From Bdellovibrionales bacterium (GTDB taxonomy: Bacteria > Bdellovibrionota > Bdellovibrionia > Bdellovibrionales > JAMPXM01): a DNA stretch of 36,030 nucleotides. Of the stretch, positions 6,001 through 12,000 are shown in pieces. Position numbers: made by a program. Every line of letters starts with the position of its first letter. Position 1 is the first letter of the stretch. The stretch lies in the NCBI GenBank assembly GCA_043739185.1, contig JAYUEN010000356.1, forward strand, positions 1 through 36,030, given 5' to 3'.

Positions 6001-9000
6001 CAAATTCTGCCACTTGCTCGACATCTTCAGTGCGATGAACATCGGTGAGAACCGGGATGCCAAATTCTTTTCGCACTCCAGCCAAAATTTTCAAGCCTTC
6101 ATTTACCATTGGGCCTTGCCAATTTTTTTCTGAGCCCCGATTGTCTTTTTCATACGACGATTTGAAAATGAGTTGAAAATCTAGTTTTTCGCAAATTTTT
6201 ACAAGTGCTGCGGCGGTCTCCATGACCAATTCTTTACTGTCGATAACACATGGGCCTGCAATGACTGCGAGTTTTTCTCCGGATCCGACTCGCACTGTAT
6301 AGCGATCAGTTTTGACTTCAAATTTTCTTTTGGGAAGTTGAATTGTCTCAATTCGTTCTTTTGAAATTTGTTTTTCCATATTTAATTACTCCTAAGTTTT
6401 TATAATTCGATAGGGCTTGTATTCGCCAATTCGGTAGCCAGTTATATTTTCAAGGGCATCACTCGCAAAGAGATTGAGATCCTTTAGCGTCCAATCCTTG
6501 AGGCTACGCTTTGGATCATACTCCCAAGTTTGGTTCGCAACCAAGTCTTTCATGACCCCGGGATGCGAGCCAGTGAATTTTTTCAAACCATATTGTTTCT
6601 CATAGCGAAAATCTTCAAATTTCTCGTCAAGCTTGGCGCCATGCCACCAGCGATTGAGCAATTTGCTCTTTTGGCCCATTAATTTCGGGGGCTTCACCCA
6701 TCCGTAATGAAAAATACGGGCTTGAGTAGGCAAAACCTTTGGCTTTTCTCCTTGAACTCTAAAGCCCTGCGCATCGCTAAAGGAGCGGATTCCAGAAGAT
6801 TTGCGAATCGCCCGTACTTCTTTTCGGTACCATTTTCGTGAATTGGCGGTGACCGAATAACTTCCGTAAAAGTGAATATATTGAAAGAGCAAAGCCTCTA
6901 TTTCTGGAGTTTTGTTAGCTTTTTCAAAAGCTTGATGTATCGAAACCAAATCCTGTTCGTGCACGACTTCGTCTGCTTGTAGATAAAAACACCAGTCGTT
7001 GGCGCATTGATCGAGAGCCTCATTGGTTTTTTCACTTAGGATGAGCCCTCCCTTGGTCTTAGAAGTATCCCAAAAGGAATCAAAAATGCGAATCTTTTTA
7101 TCTTGAATAGATTCGATCATTTTTTTAGTTTGATCATCACTCTGGCCCACGCCAATGACGAATTCATCTACAATGGGTAAAATGCTCTTGATGCTCTCGA
7201 TTACGGGATAGCCCATGAGCTCTGCATTTCGAATGACACTAAATCCCGAGATTTTCATATCAAACTAGACTAGCAGCTAGAACAATTCAGAGCAAGGTAA
7301 GCGCCTTTTTTTCGCAGTTGGGCGTCGGTTTACCTCTATAGAGTCCCAGATACGGCTTTAGGTGGCAAACCAGAAGGCTAGCTCTGGCTTTGTCTTGTTG
7401 ACCAGTCAAAAGCAAATACAAGATAATGTGACATGGTCAAAATCATAATAGCAATAGACGATTTCAATGAGAGCCTTCAATGTCAGACTCTTTTAAAAAA
7501 ATTGGGTTTTGACGTCATTTCAATTAATAAAGACTCCCAATTTCGTTCCGCGACTCTTGGTTTTTTACCAGATATAGTGATTGCTTCATTTAAAACTAAA
7601 AACGTCGATGGATTATTGCTAGGTCTTGAAGCCAAAAAGCTCATCAGTAAACCGCGGGTCCTTTTGTTGTATCCGGCAATGTCTGAGCCTAAATTGGGTG
7701 AGGAATCAAAAGTGGCTTATGACTTTTTAATGAGCTCGCCATTTGACTATGAACAGCTGATAAAACGAACTGCTGAAATGGCAAGAGTTGATCAGAATAC
7801 TCTTCATGAGAAATATCTTAAGCTCAGCATGCGCAGACCAACTACACAGGGAGCCAATACCGTATATGGTGGCAAAGACATCACCAATGATTCGCTTTAT
7901 CCTGAAAGAAGAATACCAGTTTCAAGTATGGCGCCTGAAGTAAGAAGCAAACGATACCAAGAATTTTTAAGCAAAGCCCCGAGTGAACCAGCGGCGCAAA
8001 TTATTGATCACAAAGTTTTGACTGAAAAGGTTCATCAACTTGAACAGAATTTAAAAGATGATGTGAAATCAATTGAGGCGATCAACGCTGAAAAGCTAGC
8101 CTTTGCCAAAGCGCTTTTTAAAAAACCGTGAAATTAAAAACTAGTGCCCATTAGAGTTAGGCTTGATCCGTTTTAACGGCAGCGGCGGCCGTTAACAGTC
8201 TCGCTGTTTCGGTCTCAGTTTTCTGTTACCAATAGTTTCAATAGCACTTCGTTTTCCCCGAACACAACGTTGGTATGCGGCGGCAAGGCGTTCAAAATGC
8301 CTTATACCAACCTTGTATTGGGGGGGAAACAAAGTGCTATTGCCACTATGAAGCCGACTCTGATTCTGGATCAGTTGCAGTTGACTGAATTCGGTTTGCC
8401 AGCCCTGAAGTTTTTTTGGCAAGTGTCTTTATTTGGTTTTCTTCGCCTTGGTATTAAATAACATCGTAACGACGTCTTTTAAATCGGCATTGAGTAAATC
8501 GTTCTTTTTGGCTTTGGTGACCGTGAATTCATGTTTGAGTAAATTGAGCTCTCTTCTGGCTTCGATCAAATCGACATCAAGAGAGACCGCATGTTCAAAA
8601 CTCTTTCGAGCGCTTTCGAGCTCATCATTTGATTTCAGCCAGAGTCCTTTAATGAAATAATAAAGAGCAGAGTGCCGATCCTCTGGCGGAATTTCGCTGA
8701 GCTCAGCTTTTATCCTGGCAAGATTTTCATTGGTAGTTAATGCCGGAGTTTTTAATTTTGCCCAAATAAGTAAAATTCGAAGTTCGATATTAGATGAATT
8801 CAGTTTTGCGGCAGTTTCGAGAATTGAAAGAGCTTTTTTAATTTCGCCTTTTCGTAGAGCGGCTTTACCTTCAATTGTGAGACCCTCGGCCTTCAGGGCA
8901 ACTTCGGCGGTTCCAGTTTCTAATTCGCGCAAATAGGTATCAAGGCTGTCAGGATTCGATAGAGTTTGGTAAGCTTGATTGACCTTTTCAAATGCTGCCG

Positions 9001-12000
9001 TGACCAAACTTCTGAGTTCAGCGGGAGTTTTGGGAAGCAGCTTATCAGGATGTAAAACTTTTGCCAAATCAAGATAAGAACGTTTGATCTCTGTCTCTTT
9101 GGCTTTTTTCGAGAGACCCAAGCGCTCAAAGTAATTTTGTCGATCCATCTCCTCATTGATTTTTTCAAAGCGTTTGGTTTGAGCATCAAAATCACGATGT
9201 TTGGTTTGACTTCCAAATGCAATAAGTCTGGTGGTGGTCATAAGGTGAAGGGCTCGGTACGCATAGGCCTCTTGAGTTTCATATTTGGCAATAAGAGACT
9301 GAAGTGTTGTACCTTTATGAAAAACATCATTCACAAAACCAGGTAAGTTATTTATATTGACCAAACTCAGAGCGCGGTGATTTTCTGAGTATTCCGATCC
9401 CTTTACGAAATTATGGTTCATCCAGCTTACATAAAATGCTTTAAGCCATTCTGGTTTTATTTTTGAGAGAATCCAATCGTCTAAGTATTGAATAAACATT
9501 CTTTTTGAAATTTCAACCGCTGGTTTGATATCCTGACTAGGAGTGAAGCTCACTTTAATTGAGGTGTCTTGTATCGTTTTGGCAAGGCGAATTCCTTGCT
9601 GTTCGGCAAGTACAATGCCTACGGCATGTGGGCTTAATAAATTCATTTCAACTAATTTTTCGCCCAAGCGCTTGGTTTGGCTGGGAGCCTTAATGGCTTC
9701 GTCAATTTCGGGAGCGGAAATATAACCGCCTTCAACTAAAAGTGCTCCGAAAAAAGATTCTTGATCGCTCATATCAACTTGTACAATGCTGCCCTTCATA
9801 AAGGTAACTGCTGAGTGTGCACCTTCAGGCGAAACTATACTTAAGATACCGGTCACTTCATCATCTAAAAGTAGGCTATAAACCCAGGGAAGATCATAAC
9901 CATGTACGGTATCAGACTCATTGATTGCCTTGATTCTCTCTTCAGAAGAAATCGTGCTTTGTCCCATCAAATTGTAGACTGGCATCATTCGAACTTCGAC
10001 TTCGTGAGAGGCATTGATTTTTACGTTTATGTGTTTTTTTAAATCATCAAGATTAAAGGGCTTCACCAAATAAGCAAAGGCTCCGGTTTGACGAGTGGAC
10101 TCTTGGATATAGCCTTTGTCTTTGTAAATTCCACTCATCAAGATCACAGGAATATCGCCGCCGCTGTCCGCTCTTAATTTAACCGCAAGATCGCGACCAT
10201 TCATTTTGGGCAACATACAATCTATGATTGCCAAATGAATGGTTTGCATTTTGGTTTGGGGAATTGCATCCAAGGGCTTGGTAACCAGAACAGGAGTGAA
10301 GCCGTCTCGTTTGACCATTTCATAGATGGCCTTGCCAAGGGTTGGATCATCCTCAACAATTAAAATGTTAAATTCCGATCTTTCCATATAATTCTGATCG
10401 GCTTTATAGCGCAAAGGACTTAGTGAATTCACATTGTAAGGCTTAAGAAAAAGTGTCCTATTTTTGCCCAAACTAGACCTTAGTAGCGGCCACATCAAAT
10501 TGCTGATCAATGTTATGCAATCTTGTTCATTAAATTGTCGGTTTTTTTAGATTCTGCAGAGAAGTCGCGCGCCGCTTCCCAGTAGCCACTAAGCTCGACC
10601 TTGAGGCTGTACTCAAACTGATTTATCGGTTATGATTAGACTTTAGCTTGAACACTTACTGGGGGACAAAATGGGAACAAATACTTTTGCAACAACCGAT
10701 GACAACTTTGAAAAAGACGTCTTAAAATCAGACACTCCGGTACTTGTTGATTTTTGGGCCGAGTGGTGTGGTCCATGCAAAGCTCTTGCTCCAAAATTAG
10801 AAGAAATTGCGACTGAATATTCCGGAAAAGTTAAAATCATAAAAGTAAACGTGGATGAAAACCAAAATGCGCCTGCAACTTACGGAGTGCGCGGAATTCC
10901 TACTATGATTTTGTTTAAGGGTGGCAAGCAAGTTGAGCAAATCGTCGGTAATCACCCTAAAGACAATATCGTAAGTGTGATTAGCAAGCATTTTTAATTC
11001 ATTAAAAATTGCCTCGAACAAGCATTGGCCCCTGATGATAAGAGATGAATTAGTCGTAGGTTCAAGGCAAGATCTTTAAGTGGGCGCCCATCTGCGAGTT
11101 TGAAGAGTTGAGCTCGATCCAATAGTTAAAAAAACAAGGGCCAAGCCGATTTTCCAAAAAAAATGCACAGCTTGTAAATAATGGACTCGCCAAAATGTAC
11201 CTGCTACATTTTGGAGATGCACGCAGTCATCCTTCAACATACAGAATCTAGCCCCCCGGGCTCGAGCATCGAATGGTTAAAAAGTCGAAAAATCTCTTAT
11301 GAAATACTTTGGTCAGAAAAAATATTAAATTGGCCGCCTCTTGATAACTTTGAGCTACTCATTGTATGTGGTGGAGAAATGAATGTGGATGAAGAGGCCC
11401 TCTATCCTTGGCTGAAAGCGGAAAAGAAATTTTTAAAGTCAGCTATTTTAAAAAAGAAAAAGATCATGGGGCTCTGTCTCGGAGCCCAGTTACTGGCTGA
11501 AGTTTTGGGCGCAGAAGTAAAAAAACATCCTGCTTGGGAGTTCGGTTGGCACGAAGTGAATTTGCAAAATCAAAAACTGACAGTTTTTGAGTATCATGCT
11601 TATTCCTTTTCGCTACCTCTAAATGCGAAAAGAATTGCCTCAAATGTGCAGTGCTCTGAACAGGCGTTTAGCATTGATGATCATATCATTGGCTGCCAGT
11701 TTCATCCGGAAATTACATCTACTATGGCTGCTGATTTCGCTAGTGGGGAAGGGCTTCCGACCACTGGATTTTCTCAGTCTTCAAGACAAATTCTAGACGG
11801 AATTGCTCTTTATCAAACTGGTGTTCAAGTATGGTACTTTGAGCAGCTGGATCAACTAATCGACGCTTAGAACAAAAATTTTCGATAGGCGACACTGCTG
11901 ATGAGTCCAAGTCCGGTCATGGTGGTGAGCATACTTGATCCGCCATAACTAATCAGCGGTAGAGGAATACCCACAATTGGCAGCAGGCCAATGACCATTC

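Follow-up and report, generated by a model that had tools for sequence, protein, structure and literature searches.

In the 36,030-nucleotide stretch of DNA analysed here (the window), we have characterised a response regulator, called the REC-J protein here, which carries a receiver (REC) domain, a PATAN/DUF4388-like middle domain, a J domain and TPR-like repeats in this order. On balance, we favour the reading that this protein serves the organism's single DnaK as a J-domain co-chaperone or adaptor, and we infer that it would be gated by both phosphorylation and c-di-GMP. This reading draws on the domain composition and signature residues of the protein, its orthology to a reported c-di-GMP binder, and the long-term conservation of the HPD triad of the J domain in most lineages. 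The REC-J protein is an orthologue of Bd2402 of Bdellovibrio bacteriovorus; the family already has a published member and is not an undescribed protein family.

The gene lies in an open frame at 8429..10510 (-), in which the ATG at 10495 gives a protein of 688 aa (8429..10495). This longer form had been taken as the gene in an earlier note; the frame and its ATG do exist, but the true start is probably M37 (10387), giving a CDS at 8429..10387 (-) and a protein of 652 aa. This is because the listed homologues, mostly 640-655 aa long, span 94% of the 688-aa query, because a start codon occupies the exact M37 column in 44 of 47 orthologous frames (at most one codon off in the other three), and because the frame of the same-genus locus L010 opens just two codons ahead of the equivalent Met. 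Residues are given below in the 652-aa numbering, which starts at M37 of the 688-aa form, so that the acceptor D56 corresponds to D92 of the earlier numbering. Relatives were gathered by a genome-wide protein search, since a related-locus search with the single protein gave one close relative; orthologue tallies refer to an alignment of 43 orthologues and the start-codon tally to 47 frames. The full-length AF2 model is confident (pLDDT 89.2, pTM 0.73), and the top rows of a Foldseek search with the whole model were receiver matches only.

The receiver domain is encoded at 10028..10366 (-) (residues 8-120), and Pfam Response_reg (PF00072) matches it at 44-156 of the 688-aa form with about 66.5 bits (cut-off 30.2), as it does all 43 aligned orthologues. 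All six receiver positions are kept in the REC-J protein, namely D13, D14, the acceptor D56 (codon 10220-10222, -), S85, Y106 and K109. Among the 43 orthologues, D13 is found in 42, D14 in 39, D56 in 42, and S85, F/Y106 and K109 in all.

The PATAN/DUF4388-like region is encoded at 9536..9901 (-) (residues 163-284), and the DUF4388 (PF14332) match at 199-320 of the 688-aa form is borderline, at 25.2-25.5 bits for a cut-off of 25; 39 of the 43 members match at E<=0.01, with a best value of 1.1e-9. Within this region, a pair of MshEN_N-type c-di-GMP-binding motifs is predicted at 9599..9754 (-) (residues 212-263) from NCBIfam, profile and Foldseek comparisons, and is modelled by AF2 as a four-helix insertion within the PATAN-like domain. 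NCBIfam NF053729 gives the REC-J protein 33.8 bits (E 2e-8), under the cut-off of 38, while the Bd2402 form scores 31.9 and the protein of locus L052 42.2. The family profile matches PilF (6f8l, E 1.7e-12) and MshE (5htl, E 5.2e-5), and its positions 82-135 align to MshE 8-63, which is exactly the binding motif. The top Foldseek match is 5htl, with an rmsd of 1.2-1.8 A over 51-55 columns, 34-35% identity and a probability of 1.00, and with an E-value of 0.13 because the match is short; superposition on MshEN structures gives an rmsd of 1.2-2.3 A at 30-35% identity. Since the middle domain carries this motif, c-di-GMP is a predicted second input beside phosphorylation, as far as sequence and models indicate.

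The relaxed 24-residue MshEN_N motif is given in a passage of Wang et al. (PMC5013675) as [RKPN]hGxxhhxx[GAS]hhxxxxhxxxhxx[QNKRYWST]. Motif 2 of the REC-J protein (RLGEKLVEMNLLSPHAVGIVLAEQ) fits it except at one specified position, where N replaces G/A/S, and Bd2402 has the same deviation; the strict motif expression has no match in the REC-J protein. Motif 1 has F at its first position, where R occurs in one of the 43 orthologues, and P at its last. Q263 is kept in 43 of the 43 and G242 in 40. The remainder of the middle domain (9140..9535, -; residues 285-416) is modelled with a pLDDT of 93.1, and outside the MshEN part a structure search gave weak winged-helix-like matches only (Z 4-5, best 5.2). 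GGDEF matches number 10 in the genome.

The likeness to the MshEN domains of MshE (5HTL) and PilF (6F8L, 8PDK) lies in the two tandem helix-hairpin motifs. The REC-J protein differs in having the N-terminal subdomain only, inserted in the PATAN-like domain rather than placed at the N-terminus of a secretion ATPase, in the missing Arg of motif 1, and in an inter-motif spacer of four residues, the MshE spacer being five. The DUF4388 match is shared with the cyanobacterial PatA-type response regulators. Going by the title of Makarova et al. 2006, PATAN reportedly has an alpha-helical insertion, and the predicted four-helix insertion of the REC-J protein is consistent with this description; in PatA-type regulators, however, PATAN precedes REC, whereas here REC precedes PATAN and is followed by a J domain and TPR.

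The J domain is encoded at 8942..9136 (-) (residues 418-482), with the HPD codons at 9044-9052. Pfam DnaJ (PF00226) matches it at 454-518 of the 688-aa form with 47.4 bits (cut-off 27.8), and a genome-wide J-domain scan matched C356:8939-9136 of this contig. DnaJ is matched at E<=0.01 in 32 of the 43 orthologues, and HPD is kept in 33 of them, at identities to the REC-J protein down to 25-38%; of the 248 full-length proteins from the database, 204 have it. Such retention speaks for selection on Hsp70 stimulation. The genome encodes one full Hsp70 (DnaK), with DnaJ adjacent. The signature residues listed in the earlier note (D49, D50, D92, K145 and H482-P483-D484) are all present in the REC-J protein, but HPD is not invariant in the family as claimed there: it is absent from 10 of the 43 aligned orthologues, including the Bd2402 form, and near invariance is confined to close relatives (in the list of near relatives, 116 of the 117 full-length proteins have it). 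A clade of 12 sequences of family f2 plus L058, including the Bd2402 form, has GDE, GPE, GTE, GAQ or GDQ with a two-residue deletion, and Pfam DnaJ fails to match it even at E<=1. One change on the gene tree suffices for this loss (SH-aLRT 99). Because the clade of the studied member has lost HPD, the core function that the family conserves may not need a J domain.

TPR-like helical repeats follow at 8489..8935 (-) (residues 485-633), seen as helix pairs in the AF2 model; TPR_2 scores 23.7 bits at 536-569 of the 688-aa form, below the cut-off of 27, and matches 29 of the 43 members at E<=0.01. The receiver, PatA_N-like, DnaJ and TPR architecture described before thus holds, with Response_reg, DnaJ and DUF4388 above their Pfam cut-offs and TPR_2 below. 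The protein ends in a conserved basic tail (ADLKDVVTMLFNTKAKKTK; 8432..8488, -), recognised in the alignment and modelled with low pLDDT, and the tail motif expression fits 33 of the 43 sequences. An amphipathic membrane-targeting helix was considered for this tail but is unsupported: the best 11-residue hydrophobic moment is in the top 5% of 200 shuffles in just 5 of the 43, and that of the REC-J tail (0.395) lies outside it.

Orthology with Bd2402 is indicated by a single best match, a shared architecture and one gene tree. The 77-residue stretch printed for Bd2402 recurs without change in the ORF of locus L046, likewise at residue number 206, and genome G136 has one match to the REC-J protein at E<=1e-30. 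The REC-J protein and the Bd2402 form are about 32% identical and share their length class, the order REC, MshEN_N motif, helical middle, TPR-like end and basic tail, and a motif 2 of the same type (R-h-G...N..SPHA...EQ). They differ in that the Bd2402 form has GDE and the two-residue deletion in place of a canonical J domain with HPD, and a shared locus was not found, since the gene of the Bd2402 clade lies elsewhere. In the domain table of Wang et al. 2016 (PMC5013675), Bd2402 (CAE80219) is entered as REC - MshEN_N - UNK, with no J domain named there. Its reported KD for c-di-GMP is sub-micromolar, given as 0.04 uM in the supplementary table and 0.4 uM in the supplementary text, and the binding data are attributed there to Rotem et al. 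2016 (PMC5013675). Binding has been reported for this orthologue only, and the REC-J protein is predicted to bind c-di-GMP. In the literature searched, neither a receiver-J-domain protein nor the C-terminal part of Bd2402 is described; the response-regulator census of Galperin 2006 and Rotem et al. 2016 may say more.

The count of 287 homologues at E<=1e-3 was reproduced (7998 scored candidates, 120 listed), as was the confinement of the family to Bdellovibrionota, where it is found in 88 of 401 genomes of the phylum, all from the order of the present organism except one genome of the same class. There are 214 cluster representatives at E<=1e-30; among the 150 listed, most have 620-680 aa with a match starting around residue 105-185, 12 are truncated (255-501 aa, most matching from the first residues), and two are longer (705 and 751 aa). 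The second copy noted earlier is present at G000:C46:442-2457 with 45% identity, but its contig has 2475 bases and belongs to an assembly of 540 contigs that is 3.73% contaminated. In the gene tree it is sister to the REC-J protein and the same-genus sequences within family f1, its G+C is 0.382 (0.42 for the window), and a single copy is present in each of G313 (same genus) and G211 (same family). It may be either a true paralogue or a mis-binned contig.

In the mechanism that we propose, the REC-J protein would be an orphan response regulator with two predicted inputs, phosphorylation at D56 and c-di-GMP at the MshEN_N helical motif, and its output would be the canonical HPD-bearing J domain followed by the TPR-like repeats. 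The TPR and/or PATAN parts would hold a client or a cellular site, the J domain would trigger ATP hydrolysis by the single DnaK, which would then clamp the client, and the receiver and c-di-GMP site would set the timing, presumably via domain rearrangement. The protein would thus be phosphorylated and stimulate DnaK, with both inputs gating the J domain.

The eukaryotic DNAJC3 and DNAJC7 are examples of TPR-bearing class C (type III) J-domain proteins, and DjlA and CbpA of specialised bacterial J proteins. As in these, the J domain is joined here to a client-binding or targeting module, without the G/F and zinc-finger regions of DnaJ, but none of these is known to have a receiver or a site for a cyclic dinucleotide. 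The response regulator RssB delivers a client to ClpXP; client delivery to a protein-quality-control machine is a common feature, and the difference lies in the machine and in the PP2C-like output of RssB. Myxococcus PilZ-DnaK and PilZ-DnaJ proteins, as described in two reports, fuse a c-di-GMP receptor domain to parts of the Hsp70 system (PMC8316039, PMC10313047), with PilZ rather than MshEN_N and with no receiver.

The gene neighbourhood bears on two other explanations. The earlier note had placed the gene beside the mreC-mrdA-rodA operon, and the order mreC-mreD-pbp2-rodA / trx / REC-J gene is indeed kept in L009 (f1), L050, L054 and L056 (f3), L052 (f12) and L053 (f11), where proteins outside f1 share 31-38% identity with the REC-J protein. 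A functional tie to the Rod (MreC-MreD-PBP2-RodA) machinery, by delivering DnaK to it or sensing its state, would explain this order, but we consider it improbable. Between the REC-J gene and rodA (11867..12991, with the PBP2 and MreC genes near) lie a divergent thioredoxin gene (trx, 10671..10997, +), present in every syntenic locus, and a GATase gene (11181..11870, +); since these are on the opposite strand, the REC-J gene falls outside the mre operon, and co-transcription with rodA is impossible. Moreover, what is conserved is a long stretch of housekeeping genes (S8-PilZ, ppiD, mre, trx, kdsA, lptG, dprA), resembling general collinearity, and in f2 this block persists as lptG / pseudo-receiver / trx / rodA minus the REC-J orthologue, which has other neighbours in all 11 f2 loci examined with 8-kb flanks. 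Scans of 7300-11200 gave promoter and terminator sites at the level of shuffled sequence (7 for 7.2 expected and 3 for 3.6 expected, respectively). On the other side, a convergent gene (7433..8131, +) encodes a 232-aa pseudo-receiver without acceptor Asp (hhalign probability 95.9% against the REC domain; PDB receivers down to E 3.6e-10). This neighbour gene is conserved, and its product (...FAKALFKKP) and the REC-J protein end in a similar LFKK tail; a complex prediction for the two full proteins (score 0.00, mark 0.32) counts neither way. The acceptor-less neighbour, the degenerate receiver of L031/L032 (f6), in which I and E replace D13 and D56, and the absence of a histidine kinase gene within the window would suit a receiver that is not phosphorylated in vivo and serves as a structural or dimerisation module, leaving c-di-GMP as the sole real input. 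We give this little credence: pseudo-receivers usually lose the canonical residues, but here each of the six positions, from the acidic pair that binds Mg2+ to the S/T, F/Y and K switch residues, persists in nearly every orthologue.

Somewhat less doubtful, though still rather unlikely in our view, is that the REC-J protein is mainly a scaffold or localisation factor controlled by c-di-GMP and phosphorylation, whose PATAN-like and TPR parts would act, for example, on the machinery of polarity, pili, gliding or the envelope, with the J domain a dispensable accessory. The whole HPD-less clade still has REC, the MshEN_N motif, the TPR-like part and the C-terminal tail, and a literature passage describes PATAN (DUF4388) domains as typical of PatA-type regulators. 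It would be surprising, however, for a dispensable J domain to retain its catalytic triad so long, and outside that clade HPD is present in 33 of 33 aligned sequences over deep divergence, besides nearly all near relatives. Returning to the co-chaperone reading, we tentatively suggest that this could be the first J-domain co-chaperone gated by receiver phosphorylation and c-di-GMP at once, so that DnaK would be directed to TPR-bound clients at one defined stage of the predatory cycle only, and that the clade of the model species could be a natural knockout of J function, its loss coinciding with the departure of the gene from the side of its pseudo-receiver partner.

Most response regulators have DNA binding or an enzyme as their output, and the usual targets of c-di-GMP effectors are motility, secretion and matrix. 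If the proposed reading is true, the coupling of a receiver and a c-di-GMP site to a J domain would connect Hsp70 targeting directly with the two signalling systems. Bd2402, the sole biochemically studied member, belongs to the HPD-less clade, and its C-terminal part is unnamed in the published domain table; for these reasons work on Bd2402 would miss a J-domain function, and an HPD-bearing species is the one to study for it.

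The regulator gene occupies a single open frame on the minus strand (8429..10510, by ORF scan), and translation from the ATG at 10495 reproduces the 688-aa product given in the earlier note. The claimed receiver, PatA_N-like, DnaJ and TPR architecture was recovered with Pfam in all four parts, which in 688-aa numbering are Response_reg at 44-156 (66.5 bits, cut-off 30.2), DUF4388 at 199-320 (25.2 bits, cut-off 25), DnaJ at 454-518 (47.4 bits, cut-off 27.8) and TPR_2 at 536-569 (23.7 bits, under the cut-off of 27), with more weak TPR-like matches up to approximately residue 640; the count of 287 homologues at E<=1e-3 was likewise obtained again, from 7998 scored candidates. 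The start has probably been annotated 36 codons too early, and a start at M37 would give a protein of 652 aa, because the homologues among the matches listed show 94% query coverage and are mostly 640-655 aa long, 44 of the 47 orthologous frames have a start codon at the M37 column and the remaining three have one at most one codon off, and the frame of a same-genus orthologue (L010) begins just two codons upstream of the Met equivalent to M37. Residues are numbered from M37 below, unless stated otherwise.

The middle region connects this family with a published receptor of cyclic di-GMP. The NCBIfam model NF053729 ("cyclic di-GMP-binding domain, MshE-related") matched residues 249-299 in 688-aa numbering (33.8 bits, cut-off 38, E 2e-8), a match that we regard as sub-threshold but specific. 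The MshEN motif was defined by Wang et al. (2016; PMC5013675), who tabulated the Bdellovibrio protein Bd2402 as "REC - MshEN_N - UNK" and, citing Rotem et al. (2016), described binding of c-di-GMP by full-length Bd2402; the value by microscale thermophoresis in the supplement is 0.04 in the table versus 0.4 uM in the text. The 77-residue stretch of Bd2402 printed in this supplement matches the ORFs of two orthologous loci, L046 and L043, letter for letter, and it begins in L046 at residue 206, which is the printed number. On this basis the regulator, which has approximately 32% identity to the L046 protein, is identified by sequence comparison as an orthologue of Bd2402.

A profile of the family middle region matched PilF (6f8l, E 1.7e-12) and MshE (5htl, E 5.2e-5) over exactly the binding motif. 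The middle region gave a confident AF2 model (pLDDT 93.1, pTM 0.88), for which the top Foldseek match was MshE with bound c-di-GMP (rmsd 1.2-1.8 A over 51-55 columns, at 34-35% identity), with an E value of just 0.13 because the match is short; VIA-align gave Z 3.4-4.2 against the N-domains of MshE, PilF and XpsE. In the full-length AF2 model (pLDDT 89.2, pTM 0.73), the MshEN motifs form four helices (213-271) between strands of the DUF4388/PATAN-like part. Motif 2 of the regulator (residues 240-263, minus strand) reads RLGEKLVEMNLLSPHAVGIVLAEQ, and its sole departure from the relaxed published pattern, an N where G/A/S is expected, is found likewise in Bd2402. Among 43 aligned orthologues, the first position of motif 2 is R in 23, K in 6 and P in 7, while G242 is kept in 40 and Q263 in all 43; the glycines of motif 1 are present in 41 and 36 sequences, and its Arg in one. 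Because of the N in motif 2 and a motif 1 without Arg, the strict MshEN regular expression has no match in the regulator.

Conservation of the receiver is high in the same alignment (D13 42/43, D14 39/43, D56 42/43, and S85, F/Y106 and K109 43/43 each). The only sequence departing at D13 and D56 together is L031, with I and E; the orthologues L031 and L032 of genome family f6 have this degenerate receiver and retain HPD and the MshEN motif. There are no histidine kinase genes in the window.

The canonical HPD of the J domain is encoded at 9044-9052 on the minus strand, as read from the translated codons. The earlier note had called it invariant in 20 aligned members; it is not invariant in the family, with H in 33, P in 35 and D in 33 of the 43 aligned sequences. 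The ten HPD-less sequences, nine from family f2 including the Bd2402 form and one from f5 (L058), have GDE, GPE, GTE, GAQ or GDQ in its place, plus a two-residue deletion. Pfam DnaJ was found at E<=0.01 in 32 of the 43, and in L046, L049, L038 and L058 there was no match even at E<=1; the "UNK" of Bd2402 in the published domain table is explained by the lack of a DnaJ match in the HPD-less form. In a quick IQ-TREE gene tree of 47 rows, a single HPD loss suffices, because all 13 HPD-less rows lie on one side of a single branch (SH-aLRT 99), L058 being a long branch of unsure placement. The main rival to a J-domain adaptor is that the regulator is a signal-controlled scaffold with an optional J domain, as the HPD-less clade suggests. 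Among the database matches listed of 600-720 aa, HPD is present in 204 of 248 proteins (116/117 in the near list versus 88/131 among more distant representatives), and it is deeply conserved outside one clade.

The second copy claimed by the earlier note does exist (L002; contig C46 of the same assembly, 442-2457; 649 aa, 45% identity to the regulator), with REC, DUF4388 and DnaJ matches, HPD present and the Arg of motif 2 replaced by F. In the tree it is sister to the regulator and its same-genus orthologue. Its contig has 2475 bases, and the closest genomes carry a single copy; it may be either a paralogue or part of a mis-binned contig. Family f3 does have true second paralogues (L055, L051 and L057), which form an old clade outside the conserved gene block, in which HPD is kept and the R-h-G of motif 2 is lost (GDVVKNLI and similar).

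The regulator was matched at E<=1e-30 in 88 of 401 genomes sampled across the phylum, namely the window's own genome and 87 of the 102 genomes in families f1-f12, which comprise the window's order and a single genome labelled "same class"; none of the 298 genomes outside these families had a match at this threshold. When the whole library was searched by HMMER with residues 160-688 (688-aa numbering), 214 cluster representatives reached E<=1e-30. Of the 150 listed, most have 620-680 aa with the match starting at approximately residue 105-185, and therefore an N-terminal part of receiver size; the others in this set are two proteins of greater length (705 and 751 aa) and 12 truncated ones of 255-501 aa, the majority of which match from the N-terminus onward. 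Genus g3 has no match at E<=1e-30 in 11 of 14 genomes. Frames of approximately 500 aa in three genomes (G176:C50:13839-15287, G226:C12:156869-158230 and G397:C87:42505-43893) match just residues 148/172-638 with 23-24% identity, and may be receiver-less relatives in this genus.

Tail to tail with the regulator lies a plus-strand gene for 232 aa (7433-8131), whose product has no Pfam match. This arrangement occurs in nine genome families (f1, f3, f4, f6-f10 and f12; 26 locus matches, some duplicating one place). The product is a pseudo-receiver, a receiver fold without acceptor Asp or Lys, because its first 125 residues matched the aligned REC of the regulator family (hhalign, probability 95.9%, E 6e-9) and PDB receivers down to E 3.6e-10, and its acceptor Asp column is A, T or S and its Lys column S. 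After a variable linker, its C-terminus has a conserved "R..FVKALFKK", which resembles the regulator tail "DLKDVVGxLFKKK".

The position beside the mreC-mrdA-rodA operon was upheld as a conserved gene order with mreC-mreD-pbp2-rodA; the regulator itself is outside the mre operon, with plus-strand genes for trx (10671-10997) and a class-I glutamine amidotransferase (11181-11870) between it and rodA. The latter gene is probably a local insertion, with no match in the close relative L009 or the other syntenic loci. The block order is S8-PilZ / ppiD / mreC-mreD-pbp2-rodA / trx / regulator / 232-aa gene / (GT) / kdsA / lptG / dprA, kept in families f1 (L009), f3 (L050, L054 and L056) and f12 (L052) and in part in f11 (L053). 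Since this block is long and composed of housekeeping genes, the neighbourhood looks like collinearity, not a specific tie to cell shape. At its edge, a subtilase (Peptidase_S8, fervidolysin-like prodomain) with a C-terminal PilZ domain is encoded at 18515-20302 (+) and conserved in L052, L054 and L056; a protease and a c-di-GMP receptor domain in one protein are unusual. An IS200-like (Y1_Tnp) transposase gene at 20488-21015 (-) lies directly beyond the block. In f2, the block persists as lptG / 232-aa gene / trx / rodA minus the regulator; the pseudo-receiver gene thus remains in place, the regulator gene is relocated, and all 11 f2 regulator loci with 8-kb flanks have different neighbours. 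Relocation and HPD loss coincide in the clade sampled. In the relocated locus L046 (10528-12366 (-), 14644-16593 (+)), the regulator is downstream of a Cache-HAMP-SpoIIE (PP2C) gene, with a PAS histidine-kinase-like gene at a distance of 4.7 kb on the opposite strand.

The window's genome has one full-length Hsp70 with an adjoining DnaJ, five J-domain matches in total including the regulator and the C46 copy, and 10 GGDEF matches. In Myxococcus, c-di-GMP receptors are joined to parts of the Hsp70 system, as PilZ-DnaK and PilZ-DnaJ (PMC8316039, PMC10313047). The regulator family has already been published, in the sources consulted, through the c-di-GMP receptor Bd2402; no description of a receiver-J-domain regulator was found in the literature searched, and papers beyond that literature may have one. 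As the best model, we propose that the regulator serves DnaK as a class-C-like J-domain adaptor with two inputs; it would bind c-di-GMP, be phosphorylated and stimulate DnaK, and either signal would gate the J domain.
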